Shown piece after piece: positions 1 to 17,312 of a DNA stretch of 17,312 nt (position 1 is its first letter; each line of letters begins with the position of its first letter). The position numbers were made by a program, and so were the translations under genes. A model generated the notes under the pieces. The model was given only the letters and a program-made list of their open reading frames with translations. It did no database searches and was not told the DNA's origin. Source of the stretch: a virus (taxonomy: Duplodnaviria; Heunggongvirae; Uroviricota; Caudoviricetes); the IMG/VR virus record IMGVR_UViG_2563366888_000002, positions 1 to 17,312 of that record; one strand, given 5' to 3'.

Positions 1-93
1 GCAGAAAAAGCTTATTATGCTTCCATCGGAAACGATGATCTGGCAGCCTGAGTTCACAGATAAAACACTCTCCAGGAAACCCGGGGCGGTTCA
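1..93 (+). mobile_element. IS3-family insertion sequence, right-end fragment (last 16 codons of transposase OrfB plus terminal inverted repeat); IS629/IS1203-like
   Basis: Frame 1 of 1..51 translates [16 protein letters not shown]-stop, which I recognise as an IS3-family OrfB C-terminus. Bases 37..93 are the exact reverse complement of 17254..17312. The element ends ...CCCGGGGCGGTTCA at 93 (TG...CA-type terminus). Family assignment is from memory of IS ends, not a search. Confidence 0.7.
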
Positions 94-1223
94 CACAGCC
101 GGTGTTTATGGATCTCGCCAAAAAAGGTGTGGTAGCAGATTTGATTGGCGCAGGCGCAATCATCAGAACCGCGTTCTGCGGCCCATGCTTTGGCGCAGGC
201 GCAATCATCAGAACCGCGTTCTGCGGCCCATGCTTTGGCGCGGGCGATACGCCAATCAACAACGGTTTGAGTATTCGCCACACCACGCGTAACTTCCCGA
301 ACCGCGAAGGCTCTAAGCCAGCTAATGGGCAGATGTCAGCGGTGGCGTTGATGGACGCTCGTTCTATCGCTGCGACTGCGGCAAACGGTGGCTATTTAAC
401 CTCTGCCAGCGAACTTGATTGCTGGGACAACGTGCCGGAGTACGCCTTCGATGTAACGCCGTATAAAAACCGTGTTTATCAGGGCTTTGTGAAAGGGGCA
501 ACTCAGCAACCGCTGATTTACGGGCCGAACATTAAAGACTGGCCGGAATTGGGTGCGCTGACTGACAATATCGTCCTGAAAGTGTGCTCGAAGATCCTCG
601 ACGAAGTGACCACCACCGACGAACTGATTCCTTCCGGTGAAACCTCTTCTTATCGTTCAAATCCGATTGGTCTGGCGGAGTTTACCCTGTCTCGCCGCGA
701 TCCCGGTTATGTTAGCAGAAGTAAAGCGACTGCTGAGCTGGAAAATCAGCGTCTGGCGGGGAATGTCAGCGAGCTGACAGAGGTGTTTGCGCGCATTAAG
801 CAGATTGCTGGTCAGGAGCATATTGATCCGCTGCAAACTGAAATTGGCAGCATGGTCTATGCGGTGAAACCAGGCGATGGTTCTGCGCGTGAACAGGCGG
901 CGAGCTGCCAGCGTGTGATTGGCGGTCTGGCGAATATTGCCGAGGAGTACGCGACTAAACGCTATCGTTCTAACGTCATCAACTGGGGGATGTTACCGCT
1001 GCAAATGGCGGAAGTACCAACCTTTGAAGTGGGGGATTACATTTACATCCCTGGCATTAAAGCGGCGCTGGATAATCCGGGTACGACGTTTAAAGGTTAT
1101 GTGATCCATGAAGATGCGCCGGTAACGGAAATTACGCTCTATATGGAAAGTCTGACTGCTGAAGAGCGCGAGATTATCAAGGCGGGTAGTTTGATTAACT
1201 TCAATAAAAACCGTCAGATGTAA
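94..1223 (+). pseudogene. ybhJ: ybhJ-like aconitase-family hydratase, 3' portion only (5' end removed by the IS; carries an internal 45-bp duplication)
   Basis: Open frame continuous from 94 to TAA at 1221-1223. Translation contains the aconitase-type CGPC Fe-S ligand motif and a C-terminal swivel-domain-like segment (SAREQAA...[12 protein letters not shown]). Position upstream of ybhC and attB-lambda matches the K-12 order ybhJ-ybhC-att. The frame runs into IS sequence with an in-frame stop at 36-38. Confidence 0.7.
147..236. repeat. Perfect 45-bp direct tandem duplication (2 copies) inside ybhJ
   Basis: 147..191 and 192..236 are identical (GGCGCAGGCGCAATCATCAGAACCGCGTTCTGCGGCCCATGCTTT). 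The next bases, GGCGCGGGCG, resemble the repeat start (microhomology). In frame it duplicates [15 protein letters not shown]. Confidence 0.95.
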
Positions 1224-1238
1224 AAAGCGCCATGTGAA

Positions 1239-1347
<109 letters not shown>

Positions 1348-1363
1348 AAATAGTTAATTGCTC

Positions 1364-2647
1364 TTACTTCTTCGCCTCTGCAACCACTTTACTACCCACG
1401 CCGCGGTTATTGTATTCCCACATGCGGTTGTAGTTAGTGTCATTCAGATTGCGCTGTATTTCGTCGTTATCATCTACGCTGCCGGTATTACCCGCAAACG
1501 GACGATTAGAGATCACCGCATCGGCCCACGGTTTAGCCGTGTTAAAACCTTCGTTGATGGCGCTATCACGGATCACCACCTGACCGTTGGTATTGGCATC
1601 AACATCCAGCGAGCGGCCCAGTTGCGCCACACCATCACCGAAAGCATTGAAACGGCTGTTTACGGCGAGGAAACCGTAGTAAATGTTGGACAGCGTAGCC
1701 GGTGCAAACACATACGCTTCTTGCTGAGTACGTGAGTTCACCACGCGGAATTCGGTGTTATCGAACACCACTGCGCCGCGACCAGAAACGATATCCACAT
1801 CCCCTTCAATGTAGCTGTTGGTCACCAGCGTACGCGGCTGACGATTCGTTTCCAGACGGTTCTGCACACCGCTGTTGGTGACAAAGAAGGTGTTCTGACG
1901 ACCGAGAATGTTAACGTTGTTAATCTGTACCTGGTCACCATCAGTACGCAGTGCCACCGCCGGATGGTTACCTGCATCTACGCTATCGCCCAGCGTGTTT
2001 TCGATGGTCAGATTTTGCAGTTGCAGGCCATTGTTTTGTGACCAGAAGACCGCAGAGCAGAGAACACCGATACTGTCGCTGCGTTTGCTCTGGCAGCTAT
2101 CGTACATATACCACGCTGGTTTACCTGGCATATATTTGCCGCGCGGGTTGACGTCGTGACGCCAGTCGGCAGGGCTCATGCCACCATCAAGGGAAAGCCC
2201 AATCTTCACATCAATCGGTTTTTCACCTGTACCGTACAGAGTAATTCCACCCGGAGCGGCAGGGACATATACCGTTCCCTGATACTCACCAGGCATCACG
2301 GCAATATACTGGCGCTTGTTGGTACGCTTGATAATTGCCGCATCTACCGCCGCCTGAATCGTGGTATGCGTTACACCTTGAGTGCCCGCCGGGCCGACAA
2401 CAAAGTCAGGTTGCGCAGGCAGGGTAATCGGGGAAGGATTCCACGCTGCAGCACCTGGTGTCAGGGATGCAAAATAGTGTTGAGCATCGAAATTCTGCGC
2501 TTCTTTTGCCGACAGAATCGGGCGAGAAGAGGTACCAGGCGCGGTTTGATCAGAAGGACGTTGATCGGGCGGGGTTGAGCTACAGGCGGTCAGCGTCACG
2601 CCAAAAGCCAATGCCAGCGCCAGACGGGAAACTGAAAATGTGTTCAC
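1364..2647 (-). CDS. ybhC: YbhC-like outer-membrane lipoprotein, pectinesterase family
   Basis: 427-aa ORF. N-terminal signal peptide with lipobox (LTAC). Sequence recognised as YbhC. Lies immediately beside the lambda attachment core. Confidence 0.85.
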   Translation of the reverse strand: MNTFSVSRLALALAFGVTLTACSSTPPDQRPSDQTAPGTSSRPILSAKEAQNFDAQHYFASLTPGAAAWNPSPITLPAQPDFVVGPAGTQGVTHTTIQAAVDAAIIKRTNKRQYIAVMPGEYQGTVYVPAAPGGITLYGTGEKPIDVKIGLSLDGGMSPADWRHDVNPRGKYMPGKPAWYMYDSCQSKRSDSIGVLCSAVFWSQNNGLQLQNLTIENTLGDSVDAGNHPAVALRTDGDQVQINNVNILGRQNTFFVTNSGVQNRLETNRQPRTLVTNSYIEGDVDIVSGRGAVVFDNTEFRVVNSRTQQEAYVFAPATLSNIYYGFLAVNSRFNAFGDGVAQLGRSLDVDANTNGQVVIRDSAINEGFNTAKPWADAVISNRPFAGNTGSVDDNDEIQRNLNDTNYNRMWEYNNRGVGSKVVAEAKK

Positions 2648-2693
2648 AGGTTGCTCCGGGCTATGAAATAGAAAAATGAATCCGTTGAAGCCT

Positions 2694-2785
2694 GCTTTTT
2701 TATACTAAGTTGGCATTATAAAAAAGCATTGCTTATCAATTTGTTGCAACGAACAGGTCACTATCAGTCAAAATAAAATCATTAT
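2694..2785. other. Prophage attL: lambda 15-bp core GCTTTTTTATACTAA (2694..2708) plus P' arm with arm-type Int sites
   Basis: Exact lambda core sequence. Downstream arm contains AGGTCACTAT / CAGTCAAAAT / AAATCATTAT repeats (lambda P'1-P'3 pattern). Bacterial ybhC sequence on the left, int on the right. Confidence 0.9.
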
Positions 2786-3852
2786 TTGATTTCAATTTTG
2801 TCCCACTCCCTGCCTCTGTCATCACGATACTGTGATGCCATGGTGTCCGACTTATGCCCGAGAAGATGTTGAGCAAACTTATCGCTTATCTGCTTCTCAT
2901 AGAGTCTTGCAGACAAACTGCGCAACTCGTGAAAGGTAGGCGGATCCCCTTCGAAGGAAAGACCTGATGCTTTTCGTGCGCGCATAAAATACCTTGATAC
3001 TGTGCCGGATGAAAGCGGTTCGCGACGAGTAGATGCAATTATGGTTTCTCCGCCAAGAATCTCTTTGCATTTATCAAGTGTTTCCTTCATTGATATTCCG
3101 AGAGCATCAACATGCAATGCTGTTGGGATGGCAATTTTTACGCCTGTTTTGCTTTGCTCGACATAAAGATATCCATCTACGATATCAGACCACTTCATTT
3201 CGCATAAATCACCAACTCGTTGCCCGGTAACAACAGCCAGTTCCATTGCAAGTCTGAGCCAACATGGTGATGATTCTGCTGCTTGATAAATTTTCAGGTA
3301 TTCGTCAGCCGTAAGTCTTGATCTCCTTACCTCTGATTTTGCTGCGCGAGTGGCAGCGACAGGGTTTGTTGTTATATGGCCTTCAGCTATTGCCTCTCGG
3401 AATGCATCGCTCAGTGTTGATCTGATTAACTTGGCTGACGCCGCCTTGCCCTCGTCTATGTATCCATTGAGCATTGCCGCAATTTCTTTTGTGGTGATGT
3501 CTTCAAGTGGAGCATCAGGCAGACCCCTCCTTATTGCTTTAATTTTGCTCATGTAATTTATGAGTGTCTTCTGCTTGATTCCTCTGCTGGCCAGGATTTT
3601 TTCGTAGCGATCAAGCCATGAATGTAACGTAACGGAATTATCACTGTTGATTCTCGCTGTCAGAGGCTTGTGTTTGTGTCCTGAAAATAACTCAATGTTG
3701 GCCTGTATAGCTTCAGTGATTGCGATTCGCCTGTCTCGGCCTAATCCAAACTCTTTACCCGTCCTTGGGTCCCTGTAGCAGTAATATCCATTGTTTCTTA
3801 TATAAAGGTTAGGGGGTAAATCCCGGCGCTCATGACTTCGCCTTCTTCCCAT
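2782..3852 (-). CDS. int: Lambda-type integrase (tyrosine recombinase)
   Basis: 356-aa ORF. Translation recognised as lambda Int essentially end to end (MGRRRSHERRDLPPNLYIRNNGYY...HLLGHKSDTMASQYRDDRGREWDKIEIK). Confidence 0.95.
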   Translation of the reverse strand: MGRRRSHERRDLPPNLYIRNNGYYCYRDPRTGKEFGLGRDRRIAITEAIQANIELFSGHKHKPLTARINSDNSVTLHSWLDRYEKILASRGIKQKTLINYMSKIKAIRRGLPDAPLEDITTKEIAAMLNGYIDEGKAASAKLIRSTLSDAFREAIAEGHITTNPVAATRAAKSEVRRSRLTADEYLKIYQAAESSPCWLRLAMELAVVTGQRVGDLCEMKWSDIVDGYLYVEQSKTGVKIAIPTALHVDALGISMKETLDKCKEILGGETIIASTRREPLSSGTVSRYFMRARKASGLSFEGDPPTFHELRSLSARLYEKQISDKFAQHLLGHKSDTMASQYRDDRGREWDKIEIK

Positions 3853-4048
3853 TTCTGATCCTCTTCAAAAGGCTACCTGTTACTGGTCGATTTAAGTCAA
3901 CCTTTACCGCTGATTCGTGGAACAGATATTCTCTTCCATCCTTAACCGGAGGAGGGAATATCCTGCATTCGCGCACCCATCGACGAATTGTTTCAAGGCT
4001 TCTTGGGCGTCGCTGGCGAGCGTTCCACTCCTGAAGTGTCAAGTACAT
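3830..4048 (-). CDS. xis: Excisionase Xis
   Basis: 72-aa ORF (MYLTLQEWNARQRRPRSLETIRRWVRE...) recognised as lambda Xis. Overlaps the int start as in lambda. GGAG 8 nt upstream of ATG. Confidence 0.95.
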   Translation of the reverse strand: MYLTLQEWNARQRRPRSLETIRRWVRECRIFPPPVKDGREYLFHESAVKVDLNRPVTGSLLKRIRNGKKAKS

Positions 4049-4071
4049 CGCAAAGTCTCCGCAATTACACG

Positions 4072-4096
4072 CAAGAAAAAACCGCCATCAGGCGGC
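4072..4096 (-). terminator. Putative intrinsic terminator-like hairpin (CCGCC-ATCA-GGCGG followed by a U7 tract on the minus-strand RNA)
   Basis: GC stem at 4082-4086/4091-4095 with A-run 4075-4081 on the plus strand (U-run on the leftward transcript). Located about 25 nt upstream of the xis start; function unverified. Confidence 0.35.
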
Positions 4097-4292
4097 TTGG
4101 TGTTCTTTCAGTTCTTCAATTCGAATATTGGTTACGTCTGCATGTGCTATCTGCGCCCACAGCATCCAGTGGTTATAGCAGTCGCTGATGTTCTCGGCTT
4201 CGATAACTCTGTTGAATGGTTCTCCATTCCATTCACCTGTAACTCGGAAGTGCATTTATCATCGCCATAAAACAAAACTCGCCGTAGCGAGT

Positions 4293-4324
4293 TCAGATAA
4301 AAGAAAACCCGCACTCGGCGGGTT
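4293..4324 (-). terminator. Putative intrinsic terminator on the leftward transcript
   Basis: 7-bp stem AACCCGC/GCGGGTT (4306-4312/4318-4324) with 5-nt loop, followed on the minus strand by UUCUUUUAU. Sits where I judge the sequence to diverge from lambda. Confidence 0.4.
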
Positions 4325-4603
4325 CGCATTCGTTCAAATTGCGTTTACTTCTTGGCGTTCTGTTCATCCATATCGATATACCATGGGTTGCTTCCCTTGG
4401 GCATGTTTAACGACTGCTCGCGATAGTATCTGATGCGCTCCATGAAATACTCGCGTGAGTGCTCAGGTTGCTCTCATGATACCTGCTCAGTGATAACAGG
4501 TATGTTAAGGCGCTCTCTGTACTCCATGCCTGATGCTGCAAGGTCAACGTTTACCTTGTTCTGTTTTTCTTTCGATTTCTCGGCGATGTTATGCCTGACA
4601 TTG

Positions 4604-4888
4604 TCAACCCGCCTCCTTCTGAACATAACGGTTATAAATCAGTCCCTGAGGGCCATAAGGAAGCGGGATGTGCAACTCCTCTGGTTCAGAAACTATCCAT
4701 TCCCCGGCCATCTCCGCTGGAGAGGTAATGATAAGTTGTTTGCTAATAAAAGGACCACTCCTCTCAACAACAAGCTTACCATCTTCATTAATAAAAGCTT
4801 GGATGTCAGGTGTGCTTCCACACTTGGTGATGCAGCGTTTGAACATTTTGTGTCCCCCCATTTTATGGACGGGGTAATTATAACACAT
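4604..4888 (-). CDS. Hypothetical protein (94 aa; possibly about 80 aa from an internal ATG preceded by a G-rich SD-like run)
   Basis: ORF from track; occupies the ea8.5 position but is not recognisably Ea8.5. No SD before the first ATG; GGGGGG 7 nt before the third Met codon. The antisense plus-strand ORF 4433..4891 looks low-complexity. Confidence 0.45.
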   Translation of the reverse strand: MCYNYPVHKMGGHKMFKRCITKCGSTPDIQAFINEDGKLVVERSGPFISKQLIITSPAEMAGEWIVSEPEELHIPLPYGPQGLIYNRYVQKEAG

Positions 4889-4972
4889 TGAAATATAGTA
4901 ATATTTGACGTAGATTTCTTTTGATCTATAAGCGATTTTTTAATGCTTTTAAGTTATAAATACTTGTTTTCA

Positions 4973-5548
4973 TCACCCATCTTGCTGCGGTGCTACTATT
5001 GAAAAGTACTCACACCCTTTAGCCCAAATAGTTTTGATAGTTGTCCAACTGACTGGAACCTTGATTTCGATTCTTCCGCTGCCGTCACAAGTTTCGCAAT
5101 CATCATCACCAAAGCATTCCGGGCAGCTTATAAACGTAGTTTCTGAAAATTCACCGGATAGCACACCCTTAGCGCCGTTCTCAGCGGTTAGTTTCTTCGG
5201 CACTATAACCCAACCATCCGGAGTTACCGGAGAATTGCCATTTATATCGAAGTTTGGCTCTGCGTCCTGAACCAGGAGGATGTAACCATTCTTGGCAGTA
5301 TCAAGTTCTAACGCCTCGGTGACGGTACCGAAATAGCGATTACCTAAATCCGCATCACAAGTGCTTACATCAATGGAAACCTCCATGCCTTCGATTAATT
5401 CTGGCAAGTTGTAAGTTTGGCTTACAGGTTCTGCTCCCAGTGATGCCAGTGCAATTCGTGCCAGTTCCATTTGTTCGCCACGAGTAAGCCCGTTTTCAAG
5501 CGGATTTTTAATGAACAATTCAATACGTTCTTTGGTAATAGTGGTCAT
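4973..5548 (-). CDS. Hypothetical protein with C-terminal zinc-ribbon (CPEC...CETCDGSG, DnaJ-like CxxCxGxG motif)
   Basis: 191-aa ORF. AAGGA 7 nt upstream of ATG. Only 10 nt downstream of the preceding gene's stop (operon-like packing). Cys-pair motifs read directly from the translation. Confidence 0.6.
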   Translation of the reverse strand: MTTITKERIELFIKNPLENGLTRGEQMELARIALASLGAEPVSQTYNLPELIEGMEVSIDVSTCDADLGNRYFGTVTEALELDTAKNGYILLVQDAEPNFDINGNSPVTPDGWVIVPKKLTAENGAKGVLSGEFSETTFISCPECFGDDDCETCDGSGRIEIKVPVSWTTIKTIWAKGCEYFSIVAPQQDG

Positions 5549-5558
5549 TTGTTAGTCC

Positions 5559-6314
5559 TTAAACTGCTAGTTGCAATTGCATTTCAAAGCGGTCGCGTTG
5601 TTCACAATACGCAAGAGAACCAGGGCTATTGTGTGCCTCAATCCGTTCTACCATTAATGCTGCGCGTGTCTCTTTACTTGCAGGTGCATAAGCCCCAGAC
5701 CAGGCTTTATCAATACCGATGTTTCGAGCGACGTTCGTACTATCTGCGCTGGCTAAGGGTAATTTTGTGAATATCAGCGGATTTAACATGCGCAATCCAT
5801 GTAGTTTCGTAACCAGCTGACCATGCCCATCAACAATGTGACGAATCAGGTCTTTCATTCTGGCTACCGCAAGAGTTGGGCGCTTTACGTCATAGTCGCC
5901 ACAACTACCGATAGCCACTCGCGGAAACTCATTGCACAAATGAATAAATCGCTCGTCACTTTCATTCATGTGCCACACTGGAACGCCAGCTAGTTTTCCG
6001 TGAGGCCACTCATTCAGAAGCGCATCATTTTCCTCCTCTCCGCCATCAATAACATCCGGGATAATGGCAAAATCGAATCTTGGGTGATTCTTCCAGCGAG
6101 CAACAAACTCGTAGTAATCGCTCCAGTCGATTTTGTTTTTGCCAGCTGCTTTCCAGGCGGTGAATGCACCGTTGTCCAGCGCGAACGACTGACAGTATTC
6201 AGCCGCGAGATTGATCTGGCCTGAATGCGCAAAACTGATAAACGCATGTCGCCCTTTCCATGCTCTCATTGCGCACGTATCAGGAGTAATAGGCCCACCG
6301 TGGTAGTGAATCAT
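5559..6314 (-). CDS. TGT-fold protein; candidate DpdA-like 7-deazaguanine DNA transglycosylase (251 aa from the SD-supported ATG)
   Basis: Start chosen at 6314: AAGGAG 6 nt upstream, and ATG overlaps the Ea22-like stop (TGAGATG). The track ORF extends to 6356 but overlaps the upstream gene. Motifs align to tRNA-guanine transglycosylase by eye: FALDNGAF ~ TDSGGFQ, IIPDVID ~ MIFDEC, ASADSTNVARNIG ~ FDCVMPTRNARNG. No C-terminal zinc-binding CxCxxC...H subdomain. Confidence 0.55.
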   Translation of the reverse strand: MIHYHGGPITPDTCAMRAWKGRHAFISFAHSGQINLAAEYCQSFALDNGAFTAWKAAGKNKIDWSDYYEFVARWKNHPRFDFAIIPDVIDGGEEENDALLNEWPHGKLAGVPVWHMNESDERFIHLCNEFPRVAIGSCGDYDVKRPTLAVARMKDLIRHIVDGHGQLVTKLHGLRMLNPLIFTKLPLASADSTNVARNIGIDKAWSGAYAPASKETRAALMVERIEAHNSPGSLAYCEQRDRFEMQLQLAV

Positions 6315-6315
6315 C

Positions 6316-6723
6316 TCACTCTCCTTTGATGCGAATGCCAGTAGCGCGGATTGCATCGATGACTTCAGAAACTTTGTATGCCATTACCGTTTGGTAATCA
6401 TCGTGAAAATCTGTTCGATGAAGCATGCTGCTACGTTCCGGGAGCAGTATTTCCCGCGCTTCCAGTTCTGCAATGCGCTTTTTTGCTGCTTCCAGTTCAT
6501 CCAGTAATTCCAGCACGGTAGCCGGATTAGCCTTGGCAACAAAATCCCGGACTGGCTTACAATCAATCTCCGCAATGGGTTGATACGATGTGTAGCCATG
6601 CTGTCTTGTATAACTACCGTGACGAATAACGAAAAAATCACCATTTATTTTTTTAGCCTGCCACTTATCTTCACCGGCTTTCTCTGCCGCTTCACGCAGT
6701 GCCTGAGAGTTAATTTCGCTCAC
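6316..6723 (-). CDS. Ea22/Ead-family protein (chimeric: lambda-like N-terminus and last residues, divergent middle)
   Basis: 135-aa ORF. N-terminus MSEINSQALREAAEKA... and C-terminal ...GIRIKGE are characteristic of the Ea22 family. Shorter than lambda Ea22 (about 182 aa). Confidence 0.7.
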   Translation of the reverse strand: MSEINSQALREAAEKAGEDKWQAKKINGDFFVIRHGSYTRQHGYTSYQPIAEIDCKPVRDFVAKANPATVLELLDELEAAKKRIAELEAREILLPERSSMLHRTDFHDDYQTVMAYKVSEVIDAIRATGIRIKGE

Positions 6724-6941
6724 GTCGAACCTCTCTGTTTACTGATAAGCTCCAGATCTTGCTGGCAACTGGCACAAGTCCGACAACCCTGAACGGCCAG
6801 TCGTCTTCGTTCATCTATCGGATCGCCACACTCACAACAATGAGTGGCAGATATAGCCTGGTGGTTCAGGCGGCGCATTTTTATTGCTGTGTTGCGCTGT
6901 AATTCTTCAATTTCTGATGCTGAATCAATTATGTCTGCCAT
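6720..6941 (-). CDS. TraR/DksA-family C4 zinc-finger protein (lambda orf73-like)
   Basis: 73-aa ORF with CCECGDPIDERRR...CRTCASC (two Cys pairs, DksA/TraR pattern). Overlaps the Ea22-like start by 4 nt. Confidence 0.8.
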   Translation of the reverse strand: MADIIDSASEIEELQRNTAIKMRRLNHQAISATHCCECGDPIDERRRLAVQGCRTCASCQQDLELISKQRGST

Positions 6942-7039
6942 CTTTCATTAATCCCTGAATTGTTGGTTAATACGCTTGAGGGTGAATGCGAATAATAAAA
7001 AAGGAGCCTGTAGCTCCCTGATGATTTTGCTTTTCATGT

Positions 7040-7321
7040 TCACCGTTCCTTAAAGACGCCGTTCAACATGCCGATCGCCAGGCTTAAATGAGTCGGTGTG
7101 AATCCCATCAGCGTTACCGTTTCGCGGTGCTTCTTTAGTACGCTACGGCAAATGTCATCGACGTTTTTATCCGGAAACTGCTGTCTGGCTTTTTTGATTT
7201 CAGAATTAGCCTGACGGGCAATGCTGCGAAGGGCGTTTTCTTGCTGAGGTGTCATTGAACAAGCCCCATGTCGGCAAGCATAAGCACACAGAATATGAAG
7301 CCCGCTGCCAGAAAAATGCAT
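7040..7321 (-). CDS. Small early-left hypothetical protein (likely translated from the internal ATG at 7255, giving 71 aa)
   Basis: ORF from track. The internal ATG at 7255 overlaps (ATGA) the stop of an upstream 27-codon hydrophobic mini-ORF (7252..7335), suggesting translational coupling. Lambda-like by memory. Confidence 0.5.
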   Translation of the reverse strand: MHFSGSGLHILCAYACRHGACSMTPQQENALRSIARQANSEIKKARQQFPDKNVDDICRSVLKKHRETVTLMGFTPTHLSLAIGMLNGVFKER

Positions 7322-7331
7322 TCAGTGGTTG

Positions 7332-7523
7332 TCATACCTGGTCTCTCTCATCTGCTTCTGCTTTCGCCACCATCATTTCCAGCTTTTGTGAAAGGGATGC
7401 GGCTAACGTATGAAATTCTTCGTCTGTTTCTACTGATATTGGCACAAACCTGACTCCAATTTGAGCGAGGCTATGTGCCATCTCGATACTCGTTCTTAAC
7501 TCAACGGGAGATGCTTTGTGCAT
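7332..7523 (-). CDS. Lambda orf63-like small protein
   Basis: 63-aa ORF. Overlaps the next upstream ORF by 28 nt, exactly as the lambda orf63/orf60a pair does. Confidence 0.55.
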   Translation of the reverse strand: MHKASPVELRTSIEMAHSLAQIGVRFVPISVETDEEFHTLAASLSQKLEMMVAKAEADERDQV

Positions 7524-7678
7524 ACAGCTCCCCGTTTATTATTTATCTCCTCAGCCAGCCGCTGTGCTTTCAGGGGATTTCTGATAACAGAAAGGCCGGG
7601 AAATACCCAGCCTCGCTTTGTAATGGAGTAGACGAAAGTGATCGCGCCCACCCGGATATTATCGTGAGGATGCGTCAT
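7496..7678 (-). CDS. Lambda orf60a-like small protein (60 aa from the ATG that overlaps the exo stop)
   Basis: Track ORF 7496..7684. The start at 7678 gives 60 aa and a 4-nt ATGA overlap with the exo stop, matching lambda organisation. Confidence 0.5.
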
Positions 7679-8355
7679 CGCCATTGCTCCCCAAATACAA
7701 AACCAATTTCAGCCAGTGCCTCGTCCATTTTTTCGATGAACTCCGGCACCATCTCGTCAAAACTCGCCATGTACTTTTCATCCCGCTCAACCACGACATA
7801 ATGCAGGCCTTCACGCTTCATACGCGGGTCATAGTTGGCAAAGTACCAGGCATCTTTTCGCGTCACCCACATGCTGTACTGCACCTGGGCCATGTAAGCC
7901 GACTTTATGGCCTCGAAACCACCGAGCCGGAACTTCATGAAATCCCGGGAGGTAAACGGGCATTTCAGCTCAAGGCCATTGCCGTCACTGCATAAACCAT
8001 CGGGAGAGCAGGCGGTACGCATACTTTCGTCGCGATAGATGATCGGGGATTCAGTAACATTCACGCCGGAAGTGAATTCAAACAGAGTTCTGGCGTCGTT
8101 CTCGTACTGTTTTCCCCATGCCAGCGCCTTAGCATTAACTTCCGGAGCCACACCGGTGCAAACCTCAGCCAGCAGGGTGTGGAAGTAGGACATTTTCATG
8201 TCAGGCCACTTTTTTCCGGAGCGGGGTTTTGCTATCACATTGTGAACTTCTGAAGCGGTGATGACGCCGAGCCGTAATTTGTGCCACGCATCATCCCCCT
8301 GTTCGACAGCTCTCACGTCGATTCCGGTACGCTGCAGGATAATGTCCGGTGTCAT
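7675..8355 (-). CDS. exo: Exonuclease (Red-alpha)
   Basis: 226-aa ORF recognised as lambda Exo ([54 protein letters not shown]...). Confidence 0.95.
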
Positions 8356-9137
8356 GCAGCCACCTTCTGCTCAGTGGCTTTCTGTTTCAGGAATCCAAGA
8401 GCTTTCACTGCTTCGGCCTGTGTCAGTTCTGACGATGCGCGAATGTCGCGGCGAAATATCTGGGAACAGAGCGGCAATAAGTCGTCATCCCATGTTTTAT
8501 CCAGGGCAATCAGCAGAGTGTTAATCTCCTGCATGGTTTCATCGTTAACCGGAGTGATGTCGCGTTCCGGCTGACGTTCTGCAGTGTATGCGGTATTTTC
8601 GACAATGCGCTCGGCTTCATCCTTGTCATAGATACCCGCAAATCCGAAGGCCAGACGGGCACACTGAATCATGGCTTTATGCCGTAACATCCGTTTGGGA
8701 TGCGACTGCCACGGCCCCGTAATTTCTCTGCCTTCGCGGGTTTTGAATGGTTCGCGGCGGCATTCATCCATCCACTCGGTAACGCAGATCGGATGATTAC
8801 GGTCCTTGCGGTAAATCCGGCATGTACAGGATTCATTGTCCTGCTCAAAGTCCATGCCATCAAACTGCTGGTTTTCATTGATGATGCGGGACCAGCCATC
8901 AACGCCCACCACCGGAACGATGCCATTCTGCTTATCAGGAAAGGTGTAAATTTCTTTCGTCCACGGATTAAGGCCGTACTGGTTGGCAACGATCAGTAAT
9001 GCGATGAACTGCGCATCGCTGGCATCACCTTTAAATGCCGTCTGGCGAAGAGTGGTGATCAGTTCCTGTGGGTCGACAGAATCCATGCCGACACGTTCAG
9101 CCAGCTTCCCAGCCAGCGTTGCGAGTGCTGTACTCAT
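8352..9137 (-). CDS. bet: Recombination protein Bet (Red-beta single-strand annealing protein)
   Basis: 261-aa ORF recognised as lambda Bet ([59 protein letters not shown]...). Confidence 0.95.
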
Positions 9138-9142
9138 CCGTT

Positions 9143-9439
9143 TTATACCTCTGAATCAATATCAACCTGGTGGTGAGCAATGGTTTCAACCATGTACCGG
9201 ATGTGTTCTGCCATGCGCTCCTGAAACTCAACATCGTCATCAAACGCACGGGTAATGGCTTTTTTGCTGGCCCCGTGGCGTTGCAAATGATCGATGCATA
9301 GCGATTCAAACAGGTGCTGGGGCAGGCCTTTTTCCATGTCGTCTGCCAGTTCTGCCTCTTTCTCTTCACGGGCGATCTGCTGGTAGTGACGCGCCCAGCT
9401 CTGAGCCTCAAGACGATCCTGAATGTAATAAGCGTTCAT
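9143..9439 (-). CDS. gam: Gam, RecBCD inhibitor (98-aa short form; the longer N-terminal extension is not in frame here)
   Basis: Translation [21 protein letters not shown]...[10 protein letters not shown] recognised as lambda GamS. In-frame stop at 9494-9496 upstream; the lambda-like extension peptide [15 protein letters not shown] is encoded in the +1 frame. Confidence 0.9.
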
Positions 9440-9514
9440 GGCTGAACTCCTGAAAATGGCTGTGAAAATATCGCCCGCGAAATGCCAGGCTGATTAGGAA
9501 AACAGGAAAGGGGA

Positions 9515-9721
9515 TTAGCGATTCAGGCCGTTACCGCGTCCGTCGAGAAAAACTTCCACGAGCAAATCACGGGTATAAGTGCGCTCGATGCCGCGATGCA
9601 GATAAAGCCGTCCGCGTAAATTAGCTGATGCAGTCCAGGTACCATCTTTGTGTTTGACCAGCATTCCTGGCATGACCGCACCTCGATTAACGGTCTGCGT
9701 TCCGTAATGTTGATGAACCAT
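9515..9721 (-). CDS. Small hypothetical protein in the kil position (68 aa from the SD-supported ATG); frame stays open upstream to a TTG at 9925
   Basis: AGGAG 5 nt before the ATG at 9721. The 136-codon track ORF starts on TTG with no SD. Non-lambda sequence. Confidence 0.45.
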
Positions 9722-9943
9722 AAAAACTCCTGCCCGTAAGCTGGGCTGCTGAACATATAGAGACTTCTGCGCGTATTCAGGCGGTGGATGGCCGCCGGTT
9801 GTCATAACTAAGTCGCCTCGTTGAAGCGACTGAGGTATGAAGTGTTGAGTTGATTTCAGCTGGTCACACCGACGTTCACGCGTCCGCTTCACCCCTCGCA
9901 CTCCCCGAAGCCTGCTGAAATTCAAACTGCGGATCTAAGCGGT

Positions 9944-10072
9944 CATCGCAACGGTGAAACAGGTGGTTACCGTATCGTTGTGTCGTTGCGATGAATTTAT
10001 TTAAAACTATAGTTGTTTTATCGTCAACAACAAAAGTTGTTTTGTCGGTTGTTTTAAATATAACTGGTTGTA
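9944..10072 (-). promoter_or_regulatory. Candidate OL/pL region and early leftward leader: 10-bp inverted repeat with 30-bp spacer plus GTTGTT/AACAAC operator-like half-sites
   Basis: CATCGCAACG (9944-9953) pairs with CGTTGCGATG (9984-9993). Half-sites AGTTGTTTT (10011-10019), CAACAAC (10025-10031), AGTTGTTTT (10035-10043), GGTTGTTTT (10048-10056), CTGGTTGTA (10064-10072). The same half-site recurs in the cI-cro intergenic region. No promoter hexamers confidently placed. Confidence 0.4.
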
Positions 10073-10161
10073 TTTAGGATGGATTTATTTTGTGACTTGC
10101 ATCGCATAGCGATAACTGAAGTGAGGTGTGGTGGTTTTTTGGACGGTATGAGTTATGAGGG

Positions 10162-10193
10162 GGAGGAAAAGAAAACCCGGCGCGGTTGCCGGG
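10162..10193 (-). terminator. Intrinsic terminator downstream of the lipoprotein gene (end of the cI-side operon)
   Basis: Stem CCCGGC/GCCGGG (10176-10181/10188-10193) with 6-nt loop, followed on the minus-strand RNA by UUUUCUUUUCC. 9 nt after the lipoprotein stop. Confidence 0.6.
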
Positions 10194-10201
10194 TATGATT
10201 A

Positions 10202-10582
10202 TCAGTCAGCCCAACCTGATTTCGAGTTTATTTGGGTTTCTGACATTGTGTATTTCTTAATCGTGTCATCGTTAAAAAGAATAGTAAGTTCTTTTTTCGT
10301 ACCGTTCGTTCCATTATGGAATAATCCATAGAATGGAATAAAAGTGGTGCCATTAACTTTTACTTTTGCAAAGGCGTACTTCCAGATCTCGTTTCCACTG
10401 TCAGTATATGAAACAGCATCAGGAGAACCAAAGTAAGATTTAACCTCATTCTTGGTTGTTTTACCTTCCTGAAGTTTAGACTGGACACTAATTTCAGTTT
10501 CATTTTTGAGTTGCTGGTTGCCTGAAGAAGCACACCCAGCCAATACAGATGCCATCATGGCAGCGATTAGGATTTTTCTCAT
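10202..10582 (-). CDS. BamE/SmpA-OmlA-like small lipoprotein; moron in the rex position downstream of cI
   Basis: 126-aa ORF. Signal peptide with lipobox LAGC. The EGKTTKNEVKSYFGSPD...WKY pattern resembles the BamE fold motif. Same strand as cI and followed by a terminator. Confidence 0.7.
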   Translation of the reverse strand: MRKILIAAMMASVLAGCASSGNQQLKNETEISVQSKLQEGKTTKNEVKSYFGSPDAVSYTDSGNEIWKYAFAKVKVNGTTFIPFYGLFHNGTNGTKKELTILFNDDTIKKYTMSETQINSKSGWAD

Positions 10583-10811
10583 TTTATGTTTCCATTCATT
10601 ATAATCAGAAACATCTTAACATAATGATTCGAAATAAAAACCGCTACGAGATAGGGGGACATTTTGCTGACAGTAGCAACAAATCTCAGCTAACAACGAG
10701 AATATTTACTGAAATATGCAAACAGATTTGGCGTTCTTATAGAGAATTTAGTGCAATATCTAATCCGAGTGGTATAAACCTTAACCTTCGCTCCCTTAAG
10801 TCGTAGATAAA

Positions 10812-11501
10812 TTAACCATGCTTCCTGTACGTCTGCGGCATGCTTCCAATGACCTTACCGAATATGAACACCCGGTTCATCTCGTCTTTCTCGATCGGGT
10901 CCCACGGCGAGTAGCTCTTGTTATCAGAGATAACCAGCAGCTTATCCTTCATCATTTGAAGACGTTTTACATGGGCAGTGTCGTCGTACAGAAACGCATA
11001 GATGCCATCACCGTCGAAAGATTTAACAGTGATATCAACGAACAGCAGGTCACCTGGTTCGATCGTCCCTGACATGCTGTCACCTCGCACGTTAATGATG
11101 CGGATATTTTCCGCCTTCCTGCCATCGAACATGTGACGAGCATCGTCAAACGAGTACTCAACCGAGCGTAGAACTTCTACAAACTCACGGTTGATTACAC
11201 CTGGCCCGGCACTGACTTCTATATCAAGAACGTCAATTTTGAAGTATTTGGAATGGCTGACAGTTGATTGTATTGGTTGCACTGTACTGTCTGACATATT
11301 TCCAACGCCAGAAGATAACCATTCTGCGCGCACACCCAAAGCGTTCGCGATCTCCACGATTTTAGTTGTTTGGTTAGCTTTCCCTGTTTCGATTTTCTGA
11401 ATAGCAGCCTGGCTAACCCCGACCAAATCCCCAAGCGCCTTTTGTGTAAGGCCTCGCGCTAATCTGGCTTCTTTAAGTCTTTCTGAGAGTGTTGTTTTCA
11501 T
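10812..11501 (-). CDS. cI: CI-type prophage repressor (N-terminal HTH_XRE, C-terminal S24 LexA-like peptidase domain)
   Basis: 229-aa ORF. HTH segment LTQKALGDLVGVSQAAIQKIETGK. Candidate Ala-Gly autocleavage site (VSAGPG). Ser/Lys dyad motifs GDSM and HVKRL. No SD before the ATG, consistent with a leaderless pRM-type transcript. Not lambda immunity. Confidence 0.85.
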   Translation of the reverse strand: MKTTLSERLKEARLARGLTQKALGDLVGVSQAAIQKIETGKANQTTKIVEIANALGVRAEWLSSGVGNMSDSTVQPIQSTVSHSKYFKIDVLDIEVSAGPGVINREFVEVLRSVEYSFDDARHMFDGRKAENIRIINVRGDSMSGTIEPGDLLFVDITVKSFDGDGIYAFLYDDTAHVKRLQMMKDKLLVISDNKSYSPWDPIEKDEMNRVFIFGKVIGSMPQTYRKHG

Positions 11502-11605
11502 AGATCAAATGTACAACCAAGGTTTTATTTCATCAAACGAAAATGGTTGTTGACTAAAAACAACCATAGTTTTAATCTTGATTCGGATTAACCACGGAGG
11601 TTGTT
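11502..11605. promoter_or_regulatory. Divergent promoter/operator region (OR; pR-like promoter for cro, leaderless pRM-like start for cI)
   Basis: Rightward TTGACT (11550-11555), 17-bp spacer, TAATCT (11573-11578), then GGAGG before the cro ATG. Inverted repeat ATGGTTGTT (11542-11550) / AACAACCAT (11559-11567) overlaps the -35. Confidence 0.6.
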
Positions 11606-11836
11606 ATGAACCCAGCAATCAAAACAGCGATCAATATCGTTGGTTCACAAAAGAAACTAGGCGATGCCTGCGAAGTTTCACAGCAGGCCGTCTATAAGTG
11701 GCTTCACAACAAAGCAAAGGTATCCCCTGAACATGTCGGCAGCATTGTTACGGCTACTGGTGGAGTTGTGAAGGCATACCAGATTCGCCCGGATCTTCCG
11801 AAGTTGTTTCCACACACCGAAAAGAACGCAGCTTAA
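11606..11836 (+). CDS. Cro-like HTH regulator (YdaS-like)
   Basis: 76-aa ORF divergent from cI with a strong SD. HTH-like segment KKLGDACEVSQQAVYKWLHN. Family call from memory. Confidence 0.7.
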   Translation: MNPAIKTAINIVGSQKKLGDACEVSQQAVYKWLHNKAKVSPEHVGSIVTATGGVVKAYQIRPDLPKLFPHTEKNAA

Positions 11837-11905
11837 ATTTCCATTTCACGCTCTTTAACAATAAGCAATCAACTTAACAGTCAATTCAAACTAAAGGAGT
11901 CAATT

Positions 11906-12445
11906 ATGCAACCACTTACATACCAACAGACTAGCGGATTTATTCCGACTGCGGTGATAAATCGTTCTCAAACAAAACAAGCTCCAGGCCACGAAAAAAT
12001 CCGTGATGCCGTCCGCGCCTGGTCGGCTGTAGATAATCAGGATGTCGTTGCCGCACTCATTGTGAATGAGTATCGGGAGCAGGGCGACGGCACCATCGAT
12101 TTCCCTGATGATGTCAGCCGTGCACGCCAGAAGCTGTTCCGCTTCCTCGATAACAAATTCGATTCTGAAAAATACCGAAATAACGTGCGTGAACTGACCC
12201 CGGCAATTCTGGCGGTACTACCGCTGGAATATCGCGGTTACCTGGTTGAGCAGGATAGCTTCATGACTCGGTTGGCTGAAATGGAAAAGGAACTCAGTGA
12301 GGCAAAACAGGCTGTCATTCTCAACGCACCACGCCACCAGAAACTGAAGGAAATGAGTGAAGGTATTGTGTCGATGTTTCGTGTGGACCCGGATCTGGCT
12401 GGTCCATTAATGGCGATGGTGACCACCATGCTGGGGGCAATATGA
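11906..12445 (+). CDS. CII-position regulatory protein (YdaT/CII-like), 179 aa
   Basis: AAGGAG SD. Located between cro-like and O with an ATGA overlap at the 3' end. Assignment is by position, not recognised sequence. Confidence 0.45.
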   Translation: MQPLTYQQTSGFIPTAVINRSQTKQAPGHEKIRDAVRAWSAVDNQDVVAALIVNEYREQGDGTIDFPDDVSRARQKLFRFLDNKFDSEKYRNNVRELTPAILAVLPLEYRGYLVEQDSFMTRLAEMEKELSEAKQAVILNAPRHQKLKEMSEGIVSMFRVDPDLAGPLMAMVTTMLGAI

Positions 12446-12531
12446 CAGGTTCAGAAATGGCGAAAGTCGGTCTGCGGGAACAGAACCGACTTTCAGGTGC
12501 AAATCGTAACACACTCATTGCGGGAGGAATT

Positions 12532-13461
12532 ATGGCAAACACTGCTGAGATATTCAATTTTCCAGTGCCGGATGCGGCACAAAAGGAGCCGCGCGTGGCA
12601 GATCTCGATGATGGTTATACGCGCATTGCAAATGAGTTGCTGGAAGCTGTGATGCTGGCCGGATTAACACAGCACCAGCTTCTGGTCTTCCTGGCTGTCA
12701 TGCGCAAAACATATGGCTTTAATAAAAAACTGGATTGGGTGAGCAACGAGCAACTTTCCGAGTTGACCGGGATATTGCCGCACAAGTGTTCTGCTGCAAA
12801 AAGCGTTCTGGTAAAGCGTGGGATTCTTATTCAGAGCGGGCGGAATATCGGCATTAATAATGTGGTCAGTGAATGGTCAACATTACCCGAATCAGGTAAG
12901 AAAAATAAAGTTTACCTGAAAGAGGTAAATTTACCTGAATCAGGTAAGAAAAGTTTACCCAAATCAGGTAAAGGCGTTTACCCGAATCAGGTAAACACAA
13001 AAGACAAACTAACAAAAGACAATATAAAACCTTTTTCGTCCGAGAATTCTGGCGAATCCTCTGACCAACCAGAAAACGATCTTCCTGTGGAGAAACCAGA
13101 TGCTGCAATTCAGAGCGGCAGCAGGTGGGGGACAGCAGAAGACCTGACCGCCGCAGAGTGGATGTTTGACATGGTGAAGACCATCGCGCCATCAGCCAGA
13201 AAACCGAATTTTGCAGGGTGGGCTAACGATATCCGCCTGATGCGTGAACGTGACGGACGTAACCACCGCGACATGTGCGTGCTGTTCCGCTGGGCATGCC
13301 AGGACAACTTCTGGTCCGGTAACGTGCTAAGTCCGGCCAAACTCCGCGACAAGTGGACCCAACTCGAAATCAACCGTAACAAGCAACAGGCTGGCGTGAC
13401 AGCCGGAAAATCAAAACTCGACCTGACAAACACTGACTGGATTTATGGGGTGGATTTATGA
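12532..13461 (+). CDS. O: Replication initiator O (non-lambda N-terminal iteron-binding domain, lambda-like C-terminal P-interaction domain)
   Basis: Conserved O motif ADLDDGY...LLEA...RKTYGFNK...SNEQLSELTG and lambda-like C-terminus (...WIYGVDL). Start set at 12532 (GGGAGG 5 nt upstream; aligns with the lambda O N-terminus). The track ORF begins at 12442. Confidence 0.85.
   Translation: MANTAEIFNFPVPDAAQKEPRVADLDDGYTRIANELLEAVMLAGLTQHQLLVFLAVMRKTYGFNKKLDWVSNEQLSELTGILPHKCSAAKSVLVKRGILIQSGRNIGINNVVSEWSTLPESGKKNKVYLKEVNLPESGKKSLPKSGKGVYPNQVNTKDKLTKDNIKPFSSENSGESSDQPENDLPVEKPDAAIQSGSRWGTAEDLTAAEWMFDMVKTIAPSARKPNFAGWANDIRLMRERDGRNHRDMCVLFRWACQDNFWSGNVLSPAKLRDKWTQLEINRNKQQAGVTAGKSKLDLTNTDWIYGVDL
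12883..12995. repeat. Replication origin iterons inside O (five about 18-bp direct repeats), followed by an A/T-rich segment to about 13040
   Basis: TTACCCGAATCAGGTAAG (12883), TTTACCTGAAAGAGGTAAA (12911), TTACCTGAATCAGGTAAG (12931), TTACCCAAATCAGGTAAA (12954), TTACCCGAATCAGGTAAA (12978), then ACAAAAGACAAACTAACAAAAGACAATATAAAA. Classic lambdoid ori architecture. Confidence 0.8.
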
Positions 13462-14159
13462 AAAACATCGCCGCACAGATGGTTAACTTTGACCGTGAGC
13501 AGATGCGCCGGATCGCCAACAACATGCCGGAACAGTACGACGAAAAGCCGCAGGTACAGCAGGTAGCGCGGATCATCAACGGTGTGTTCAGCCAGTTACT
13601 GGCAACTTTCCCGGCGAGCCTGGCTAACCGGGACCAGAACGAACTGAACGAAATCCGCCGCCAGTGGGTTCTGGCTTTCCGGGAAAACGGGATCACCACA
13701 ATGGAACAGGTTAACGCAGGAATGCGCGTAGCCCGTCGGCAGAATCGACCATTCCTGCCATCACCCGGGCAGTTTGTCGCCTGGTGCCGGGAAGAAGCAT
13801 CCGTTACCGCCGGACTGCCAAACGCCAGCGAGCTGGTTGATATGGTTTACGAGTATTGCCGGAAGCGTGGCCTGTATCCGGACGCAGAGTCTTATCCATG
13901 GAAATCAAACGCGCACTACTGGTTGGTTACCAACCTGTACCAGAACATGCGGGCCAATGCGCTGACTGACGCGGAATTACGGCGTAAAGCTGCCGATGAG
14001 CTGACCTGTATGACCGCGCGAATTAACCGTGGTGAGGCGATACCTGAACCAGTAAAACAACTTCCTGTCATGGGCGGTAGGCCTCTAAATCGTGCACAGG
14101 CTCTGGCGAAGATCGCAGAAATCAAAGCGAAGTTCGGACTGAAAGGAGCAACTGTATGA
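13458..14159 (+). CDS. P: Replication protein P (DnaB helicase loader)
   Basis: 233-aa ORF recognised as lambda P almost residue for residue (MKNIAAQMVNFDREQMRRIANNMPEQYDEKPQVQQVA...). Confidence 0.95.
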   Translation: MKNIAAQMVNFDREQMRRIANNMPEQYDEKPQVQQVARIINGVFSQLLATFPASLANRDQNELNEIRRQWVLAFRENGITTMEQVNAGMRVARRQNRPFLPSPGQFVAWCREEASVTAGLPNASELVDMVYEYCRKRGLYPDAESYPWKSNAHYWLVTNLYQNMRANALTDAELRRKAADELTCMTARINRGEAIPEPVKQLPVMGGRPLNRAQALAKIAEIKAKFGLKGATV

Positions 14160-14329
14160 CGGGCAAAGAGGCAATTATTCATTATCTGGAGACGCACAAG
14201 AGCTTCTGTGCGCCGGACGTTGCTGCGACAACAGGTGTGACATTAACCAGCATAAATCAGGCTGCGGCAAAAATGGCGCGGGCAGGAATCCTGGTCATTG
14301 ATGGTAAGGTCTGGCGAACGTTTGTTTAA
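14156..14329 (+). pseudogene. ren: ren N-terminal fragment (57 codons; lambda-like for about 50 residues, then divergent and terminated)
   Basis: ATG overlaps the P stop. Translation MTGKEAIIHYLETHKSFCAPDVAATTGVTLTSINQAAAKMARAGILVIDGKVWRTFV-stop matches lambda Ren (96 aa) only in its N-terminal part. Not in the ORF track because under 60 aa. Confidence 0.6.
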
Positions 14330-14475
14330 CGGTTAGCTACTCAGGATGATAGGGCGGGGCAAGTGAGTATGAAGCGGATTTTCAGGAATGCCATCAGAGT
14401 TTGGAAATAAAGTGGGTTTTCTAGTGGCAAGAGACTTGATAATATTTAGTTCTTTAAATCCAAGGAGATAGGGTT

Positions 14476-14970
14476 ATGAGAAAATTTATTATAGCCTTTG
14501 TCATAAGTGCCTCGTTTACTGCAAATGCTGGTGTAGAGAAGTTAGGGTCGTGGATAACAAAGTCTGAGATAAATAAAATGACTGACCAGACTGACTTTGT
14601 GGCTCTTAATTTATCACCAGATTCATATAACAAAGCAGGTACTGATCGTGCAACTTCACTGGTGTTGCGTTGTAGTGATAACAAAACAGATGCCTATTTA
14701 TCATTCAATGATTATATGGGTTCGGACAACCCAAGAATTACAGTGCGGTTAGATGGCGGAAAGCCGGTCAAGAGTGCTTGGGGAGGTGGGGAAGGCGGTG
14801 ATTCTGCATTTGCTCCACAACCAATACAATTTATAAAGACCTTGGCTAAGCATAAAAAAGCTATTTTTGGGTTTGAACCTTATGGATCAACTATGCAAGT
14901 AGTTGAGTTTGACTTGTCTGAGATTGATAAGGTTGTGGAAAAAATTTCACAGTCTTGCAATTGGAAATGA
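14476..14970 (+). CDS. Secreted hypothetical protein (signal peptide, two Cys), low-GC moron
   Basis: 164-aa ORF. N-terminal MRKFIIAFVISASFTANA signal-peptide pattern. GGAG-type SD. Visibly AT-rich relative to neighbours. Followed by a terminator. Confidence 0.65.
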   Translation: MRKFIIAFVISASFTANAGVEKLGSWITKSEINKMTDQTDFVALNLSPDSYNKAGTDRATSLVLRCSDNKTDAYLSFNDYMGSDNPRITVRLDGGKPVKSAWGGGEGGDSAFAPQPIQFIKTLAKHKKAIFGFEPYGSTMQVVEFDLSEIDKVVEKISQSCNWK

Positions 14971-14987
14971 CAAAAAAATTTCATATG

Positions 14988-15012
14988 AACCCAGTTGGCG
15001 CTGGGTTTTTTA
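14988..15012 (+). terminator. Intrinsic terminator after the secreted-protein gene
   Basis: Stem AACCCAG/CTGGGTT (14988-14994/15001-15007) with loop TTGGCG, followed by TTTTTAT. Confidence 0.65.
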
Positions 15013-15607
15013 TTTCAGTAGCCAATAATGCATTCAAAATCTCTTACTTGAGAAACGGCCTATTTGAGATTTCAGTCGTGGCAGGATGATCAGTTGATTC
15101 GAGTATTGACGCATTTGCGTTCGGAGCGATTACAGTAGATTGTAAATAATAATGAGAAACACATAGCCACATAGCCACCCCGTGGTATTGAAACCATATA
15201 ATGTTGGATTTGAAAACAGATCTTTTCCCATGTATTAATAACTACATCCCCGCGAGTGATTCAAAAAGGAGGGCCCAATTTTGTCCGAGTTTTTGTATTC
15301 CCCCGCATGCCGCTGCGGAGCACTACATCTGAGTGTCTGACTAGGGGATAAAATTAGACTGGATAGTGAGAAGAAAGTGGCGCGCTAGGCTGTGCCGAGT
15401 GCTACCAGTACACCTTGGGGGTGTGCAGCTTTCGCCGAGACTGTAGTGGGTATCGGTTAATGCACGAAAAACCGAGAGGTCAGACAACCAATTTGCCGTA
15501 GGATTGTTTCCGGTGCGATACCGGTCTACTAACTGAAAGCAATGCGAAAAAGCATAAACTCGGTCCTTCAGTCGCCCTACACACTATTTACTAAGAAGGG
15601 CTGAAGC

Positions 15608-15808
15608 ATGGATACAATTATTACATGGATGGGAGATCGTCTGTTGGGGGGGACACAAAAATCCGATCTGCAGCAGATGGCGATCACTGGATTAACTTCC
15701 GCGATTTGTTCAACAATTTTGTACACTGAAAAATTAAAACATGGTGAGCCTATTAACCCAAACGAAGAAGAAAAACTTTATAGGCTTTGGTATGAAGGAA
15801 ACGCTTGA
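15608..15808 (+). CDS. Hypothetical small protein (66 aa)
   Basis: ORF from track. AAGGG 9 nt upstream of ATG. No recognisable motif. Confidence 0.4.
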   Translation: MDTIITWMGDRLLGGTQKSDLQQMAITGLTSAICSTILYTEKLKHGEPINPNEEEKLYRLWYEGNA

Positions 15809-15916
15809 AAGAATAAAGCACAATTAAAACCTTTGATTTGCGATAATCAACTTGCCATAATTAAGTAATCGGAGCCTGAACAACTCCGGTGACTTCTGCG
15901 CTAAACGGGGACGTTT

Positions 15917-16018
15917 ATGCGCACATACAATCCAAACTATCTTCTCCTTTCACAGATGCAGAAATGCACCTGCAATTCTTTGCATCTAGCGTTTGACCTC
16001 TGTGGAGGTGAAGCGTGA
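15917..16018 (+). CDS. ylcH: YlcH-like small protein (33 aa)
   Basis: ATG at 15917; translation [33 protein letters not shown]-stop. Stop overlaps the GTG start of the ybcN-like gene, as in DLP12. Recognised from memory. Confidence 0.5.
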
Positions 16019-16470: not shown

Positions 16471-16640
16471 TGGCTACACCGCTTATTCGTGTCATGAACG
16501 GACACATCTACAAAGTACCAAATCGTCGTAAGCGTAAACCTGAGCTGAAGCCATCCGAAATACCAACACTGCTCGGATATACCGCTAGCCTGGTTGATAA
16601 AAAATGGTTGCGACTGGCAGCAAGGAGGAATCATGGCTGA
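16470..16640 (+). CDS. ninE: NinE
   Basis: 56-aa ORF ([56 protein letters not shown]) recognised as NinE. Start overlaps the ybcN stop. Under 60 aa, so absent from the track. Confidence 0.8.
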   Translation: MATPLIRVMNGHIYKVPNRRKRKPELKPSEIPTLLGYTASLVDKKWLRLAARRNHG

Positions 16641-17253: not shown

Positions 17254-17312
17254 TGAACCGCCCCGGGTTTCCTGGAGAGTGTTTTATCTGTGAACTCAGG
17301 CTGCCAGATCAT
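17254..17312 (-). mobile_element. IS3-family insertion sequence end (same element type as at 1..93, opposite orientation, truncated by window edge)
   Basis: Starts TGAACCGCCCCGGG...; 17254..17312 is the exact reverse complement of 37..95. Interrupts rusA. Confidence 0.7.

Follow-up and report, generated by a model that had tools for sequence, protein, structure and literature searches.

Microhomology-mediated tandem duplications are a described class of mutation in which microhomologies of 5-8 bp are involved, long GC-rich pairs are favoured and the products are readily reversible (PMC8639346). The perfect 45-bp duplication analyzed here lies in a 3' fragment of the ybhJ gene, near the start of a stretch of 17,312 nucleotides recorded as viral DNA (IMG/VR record IMGVR_UViG_2563366888_000002, positions 1 to 17,312), which we refer to as the window. 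It resembles the events described by Dan et al. (2021, PNAS; PMC8639346), and in earlier work on slippage in Escherichia coli, in that head-to-tail copies of a short segment, of 45 bp in ybhJ and of 55-92 bp in the 2021 study, arise between direct repeats, that a longer, GC-rich microhomology favours the event, and that both a reciprocal deletion and recurrence at the same site are found. It differs from them in that a natural clone is fixed for the allele, whereas the alleles of the 2021 study are subclonal, and in that the duplication is in frame within a gene that appears to have been inactivated already, so that no phenotype would be expected from it. A second described group consists of the IS629 insertional pseudogenes of Escherichia coli, with which ybhJ of the window shares the 1,310-bp element of the IS3 family, the 3-bp target duplication and the interruption of a chromosomal gene; no unusual difference from this group was found. 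The insertion and the duplication are separate events at a distance of 54 bp, with no indication that either caused the other. The third point of comparison is aconitase, in which Cys358, Cys421 and Cys424 are the three ligands of the [4Fe-4S] cluster. For YbhJ itself, no established function was found in the literature searched, and the protein is labelled as a 'putative hydrolase' (PMC9068703).

The initial annotation assigned the interrupted gene to ybhJ, and the assignment is borne out by a match of the window ORF to the NCBIfam family NF008503 ('hydratase') of 702 bits over profile positions 412-753 (curated equivalog cut-off, 641 bits); intact YbhJ of strain REL606 scores 1,538 bits against the same profile. 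The 3' part of ybhJ in the window is identical to that of single-copy REL606 except for the 45-bp insert, and positions 1-7223 of the window show 100% identity to scaffold KE136920.1 of assembly GCA_000408145.1. The 371-amino-acid product of the ATG-start ORF (108-1223) is on record for E. coli KTE120 (ELI44159.1 / EOV28524.1), and no record was found for the product of the GTG-start ORF (102-1223). When intact YbhJ is aligned to the mitochondrial aconitase of pig (PDB 5acn), its C360 is matched to C358 and its C421-G-P-C424 to C421-G-P-C424, so that all three cysteines align. The CGPC motif, which is carried by the duplicated unit, would correspond to two of the three iron-sulfur ligands, in agreement with what the initial annotation stated for this enzyme family. 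The difference from aconitase is that Cys360 of the window gene lies upstream of the IS629 insertion and is cut off from the CGPC pair; the window ORF contains only this pair, twice, and the three ligands are not present in one polypeptide. The ybhJ gene of the window is best regarded as a pseudogene in which the cluster site would be unable to form and, because IS629 separates C360 from CGPC, it was non-functional before the duplication is even taken into account. The coordinates of the features are listed in Table 1.

Table 1. Features of the ybhJ region and of its surroundings in the window.
Feature	Position	Strand	Remarks
Right end of IS629 copy (IS3 family)	1..93	+	Window begins inside the element; terminal ...CCAGGAAACCCGGGGCGGTTCA ends at 93
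Right copy of the 3-bp target-site duplication CAC	94..96	+	IS629 insertion after nt 1180 of ybhJ
3' fragment of ybhJ (aconitase-family hydratase) with duplication	94..1223	+	Gene callers: ORF 108-1223, 371 aa
Microhomology repeat 1, TTGGCGCAGGCG	145..156	+	Upstream, ancestral
Copy 1 of the 45-bp unit	147..191	+	Register of the initial annotation; 15 residues; CGPC at 177-188
Microhomology repeat 2, TTGGCGCAGGCG	190..201	+	Novel junction; A-type base places the crossover inside TTGGCGC
Copy 2 of the 45-bp unit	192..236	+	CGPC at 222-233
Microhomology repeat 3, TTGGCGCGGGCG	235..246	+	Downstream, ancestral, G-type
ybhC (pectinesterase-family putative acyl-CoA thioesterase)	1364..2647	-	Context gene
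Integrase of lambdoid prophage at lambda attachment site	2782..3852	-	Context
Right end of second IS629 copy, inverted	17254..17312	-	Window bounded by IS629 ends on both sides

The two copies of the 45-bp unit, already recognized in the initial annotation as a perfect in-frame duplication at 147-236, are 100% identical and follow each other head to tail without spacer and without any divergence. Tandem Repeats Finder reported the repeat at 145-246 with a period of 45, 2.3 copies, 98% matches and no indels. Identity at period 45 extends over 52 nt (145-196 against 190-241), and the 45-bp unit is trailed by a third, partial copy, TTGGCGC. The reading frame of the ORF (102/108-1223) is kept and a stretch of 15 amino acids is encoded twice. 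In 17 kb, the number of perfect tandem matches of 45 bp expected by chance is about 1e-23, and a chance origin is excluded. The microhomology GGCGC(A/G)GGCG that had been noted at the endpoints is in fact longer: the unit is bounded by an imperfect 12-bp direct repeat, TTGGCGC(A/G)GGCG. The duplicated allele contains three copies of this repeat (starting at 145, 190 and 235), that is, one extra copy at the junction, and since the middle repeat is of the A-type and the last one of the G-type, the exchange that gave the duplication maps to the TTGGCGC block.

The state of the locus before the duplication can be read from other genomes. The best full-length matches to positions 91-1300 of the window were obtained in two pieces, with the matched record spanning 44 bases less than the query; after allowing for the overlap of the two pieces across the repeat, this shortfall corresponds to one 45-bp unit. 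REL606 and other single-copy genomes contain exactly two repeats, TTGGCGCAGGCG and TTGGCGCGGGCG, the starts of which are 45 bp apart, and the single-copy sequence was seen directly in thousands of genomes. The duplication junction was found in only one of 5,426 complete E. coli genomes, and exact scans for it in the GTDB species representative genomes and in the JGI metagenome contigs returned no match. More than 99.9% of the genomes are single-copy, as had been expected for related ybhJ genes, and a two-copy arrangement common to all homologues, which would have made the feature ancestral, is ruled out by these counts. Judged from these comparisons, a single copy is the ancestral state.

The IS element ends at position 93 of the window, 54 bp ahead of position 147, as the initial annotation stated. 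The window itself contains only the terminal 93 bp of the element, and its identification as IS629 makes use of related loci. A complete element is present at the same site in L010; it is 1,310 bp long, contains two overlapping transposase ORFs, orfA (HTH_Tnp_1) and orfB (rve), and is 99.5% identical over 1,310 bp to elements annotated as 'IS3 family IS629'. The sequence at the insertion reads ...GTCATCAC-IS-CACAGCCGG in L003, L008 and L010, and GTCATCACAGCCGG in intact REL606, showing the 3-bp target duplication. The insertion is located at codon 393/394 of ybhJ, between C360 and the CGPC motif.

The same IS629 junction was found together with the duplication in three assemblies, L003, L004 (an ENA metagenome contig) and L005. 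An identical 1,310-bp IS629 at the same site, in the same orientation and with the same CAC target duplication, yet with a single copy of the 45-bp unit, is present in L008, L010 and L013, the flanks of which differ from the window by only 1-2 SNPs per approximately 2.9 kb. Besides these three, up to three further places are similar. The IS-truncated single-copy product (356 aa) was found on 60 contigs in an exact-protein look-up. An intact K-12-type YbhJ with the duplication, which is the haplotype of the window, was absent from approximately 15 billion proteins searched by exact look-up, and exact look-ups of the duplication on REL606 and on four further YbhJ haplotypes were all negative. 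Because assemblies with IS629 at the same site and with nearly identical flanks are single-copy, parsimony indicates that the duplication most likely arose after the IS629 insertion, which agrees with the earlier suggestion that the gene had been disrupted first. Under the opposite order, the duplication would have arisen in an intact ybhJ, IS629 would have inserted later, and the single-copy IS-bearing relatives would be revertants. The same duplication is indeed known from an intact gene (N1454 and L016, see below), and in the system of PMC8639346 the reversion of short tandem duplications is approximately 100-fold faster than their formation. However, this order needs three events instead of two, the intermediate which it requires is the duplicated but otherwise intact K-12-type protein that is missing from the protein collection, and it has to accommodate L008, L010 and L013, in addition to the up to three similar places, as IS-bearing single-copy loci against three duplicated ones. 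We therefore consider this order unlikely.

The duplication is not confined to the IS-bearing clone. An intact ybhJ without an IS, encoding 768 amino acids, has the same duplication in strain N1454, for which a complete genome is available, and in a second assembly, L016; at the duplication junction the window, L001 and L016 do not differ in sequence. Between the N1454/L016 haplotype and that of the window there are 20 differing sites across the complete gene, 11 of them in its 3' part, and the closest one is located 25 bp upstream of the repeat. The N1454/L016 haplotype is 100% identical to many single-copy genomes, for example 042 and YD786. Since the haplotype is a different one and equals that of single-copy genomes, the duplication appears to have arisen independently at least twice. 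Shared descent of the window duplication with that of N1454 was considered and rejected on the basis of the 11 and 20 differing sites and the identity of each haplotype to single-copy genomes. Transfer between the lineages on a recombination patch of less than approximately 400 bp is formally possible.

The reciprocal event has also taken place. A 45-bp deletion allele on the K-12 haplotype (P0046) encodes a product of 738 amino acids that lacks exactly the 15 residues. At least 14 contigs carry this allele, as do two of the 5,426 complete genomes, UTAK-1 (NZ_CP157165.1) and OkiPb01711 (NZ_AP042673.1). At the DNA level the deletion junction consists of TTGGCGCAGGCG followed directly by ATACG, with the retained repeat being of the A-type; a G-type junction was searched for in the genomes as well and gave nothing. 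The exchange leading to the deletion would lie in or after the GGCG block, whereas the duplication exchanges would lie in the TTGGCGC block. The 738-aa allele is circulating (L017-L025, UTAK-1 and OkiPb01711), with both CGPC cysteines gone, the ORF otherwise intact and the product annotated as 'hydratase'. Both complete genomes with this allele are from bovine isolates.

Gain on two occasions and loss on at least one of the same 45 bp in natural isolates raise the question of whether ybhJ is a contingency (phase-variable) locus, in which the unit expands and contracts frequently and thereby switches YbhJ activity or expression. The initial annotation had left room for such a repeat, and since the unit contains two iron-sulfur ligands, the enzyme should be altered when the copy number changes. 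However, the unit lies within the coding sequence and, at 45 bp, amounts to exactly 15 codons, so that no frame switch results from its gain or loss. Exact look-ups of a three-copy allele on the window-fragment, K-12 and N1454 haplotypes found none in approximately 15 billion proteins. Typical contingency loci consist of long repeat arrays, whereas only two units are present here. Copy number is stable among close relatives, neither several repeat states among them nor a switch in frame or promoter spacing was found, the vast majority of genomes has one copy (see above), and the gene in the window is already dead. Taken together, phase variation is extremely unlikely. A related scenario is that the GC-rich repeats make the 45-bp segment a reversible hotspot of gain and loss that is used as an on/off or modulating switch of YbhJ, with the alleles in intact genes (N1454, UTAK-1 and OkiPb01711) being under selection; we regard this as very unlikely.

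It was also considered whether the duplication could be an assembly or sequencing artefact, being either spurious or a collapsed form of a longer array, the second of which had been mentioned in the initial annotation. The window does resemble a short-read contig bounded by IS copies. However, exactly two copies are present in five assemblies obtained by different routes in different projects, namely the NCBI drafts L003 and L005, the metagenome contig k141_1942 (L004), the complete genome of N1454, and L016, and the repeated tract of 97 bp is below typical read length. An artefact is scarcely credible in view of these assemblies.

The duplication in the window is, very probably, a microhomology-mediated tandem duplication that was formed by slippage after the IS629 insertion and that is neutral in the resulting pseudogene. 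Perfect copies, repeats at both ends that were already present in the ancestor, an additional repeat at the junction, a reciprocal deletion and recurrence, as expected for a tandem duplication of this type, were all observed. The slipped-strand event proposed in the initial annotation is supported by the identity of the copies, the microhomology at the endpoints and the single-copy ancestor, and slippage as the physical mechanism is what this anatomy suggests. In ancestral ybhJ, the GC-rich imperfect direct repeats, the upstream TTGGCGCAGGCG and the downstream TTGGCGCGGGCG, would have provided the substrate. The nascent strand, after copying the downstream repeat, would re-pair with the upstream repeat and copy the same 45 bp again, giving rise to the tandem duplication. 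In the lineage of KTE120 and its close relatives, IS629 would have split ybhJ between Cys360 and Cys421/424 beforehand, and the duplication in the split gene would bring no functional change and persist as a neutral mutation; it would be functionally silent because the gene had already been split. The proposal that the duplication reflects relaxed selection on a pseudogene holds in so far as the duplication would be harmless in the window, but such relaxation is not needed for alleles of this kind to occur, since the duplication in intact ybhJ of N1454 and L016 and the deletion alleles exist as well.

The repeats themselves have a coding background. Both 12-bp repeats encode Gly-Ala-Gly, flanking a beta-strand and the loop with the cysteine ligands, and the GC-rich pair exists because of this shared coding. 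In the whole single-copy ybhJ gene there are two pairs of 12-mers with at most one mismatch within 100 bp, compared to 0.48 expected from shuffled sequences, and the pair that bounds the 45-bp unit is one of them. Slippage promoted by a hairpin was considered as well, as the unit contains a 6-bp stem (CAGAAC-CGC-GTTCTG), and was rejected, with folding being no better than that of shuffled sequence. For each strand, and for the one-copy as well as the two-copy sequence, DNA folding gave z values between -0.07 and -0.98, which indicates no structure beyond chance. Because no hairpin was found, the recurrence at this site is explained by nothing beyond the direct repeats.

Several further observations were made on the surroundings of the locus. 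The right end of IS629 occurs at either edge of the window, directly oriented at 1-93 and inverted at 17254-17312, and the window probably represents a short-read contig that was interrupted at IS copies. Downstream of ybhC lies a lambdoid prophage with int, exo, bet, CI, CII-like, O and P genes, and the IS629 ends on both sides imply that this prophage is interrupted or truncated by the second IS629. In the spacer between ybhJ and ybhC, a 93-bp REP-like palindromic element is absent at 1251/1252 of the window, as it is in L003 and REL606, and present in L004, L005, L008, L010, L013 and L001, which are the closest relatives and N1454. With this element, a second small indel distinguishes members of the IS629-bearing clone. 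Within the O-like replication initiator gene of the prophage (12442-13461), an array of repeats of approximately 19-23 bp (TTTACCC.AA.CAGGTAA-like) is located at 12883-12995 and represents the expected origin iterons of a lambdoid phage. An ORF in the early region of the prophage (5559-6356, minus strand, 265 aa) matches PHROG 887, 'queuine tRNA-ribosyltransferase', with E = 7e-104 and may be a DpdA/Tgt-like gene for 7-deazaguanine modification of DNA. Close to the end at which the IS truncates the prophage, an ORF of 221 aa (16269-16934, minus strand) had no PHROG match at E <= 0.001.

The ybhJ gene is disrupted in other strains as well (L006, L007, L009, L011, L012, L014 and L015; protein P0018), and the disruptions are of many independent kinds. 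These include frameshifts (405 + 356 aa), other truncations, an IS1 beside a GFP/TetR construct, a different element of the IS3 family, and a ybhI-ybhJ fusion of 769 amino acids. Because the gene is broken in many ways across E. coli, this suggests that selection on ybhJ is weak and that the gene is widely dispensable in this species. As a mutational footprint, the duplication is ordinary and of a known type, with no evident function; being a secondary, neutral change in a gene that an IS element had already destroyed, it carries little weight for biology at large. Annotated entries for the 371-aa 'hypothetical protein' and for the 'hydratase' proteins of 768 and 738 aa are to be read as mutant or pseudogene forms. 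The modest value of the locus is that it provides a clean natural case in which one pair of microhomologies has given rise to a duplication twice and to the reciprocal deletion, and in which the order of events is recoverable from public assemblies.
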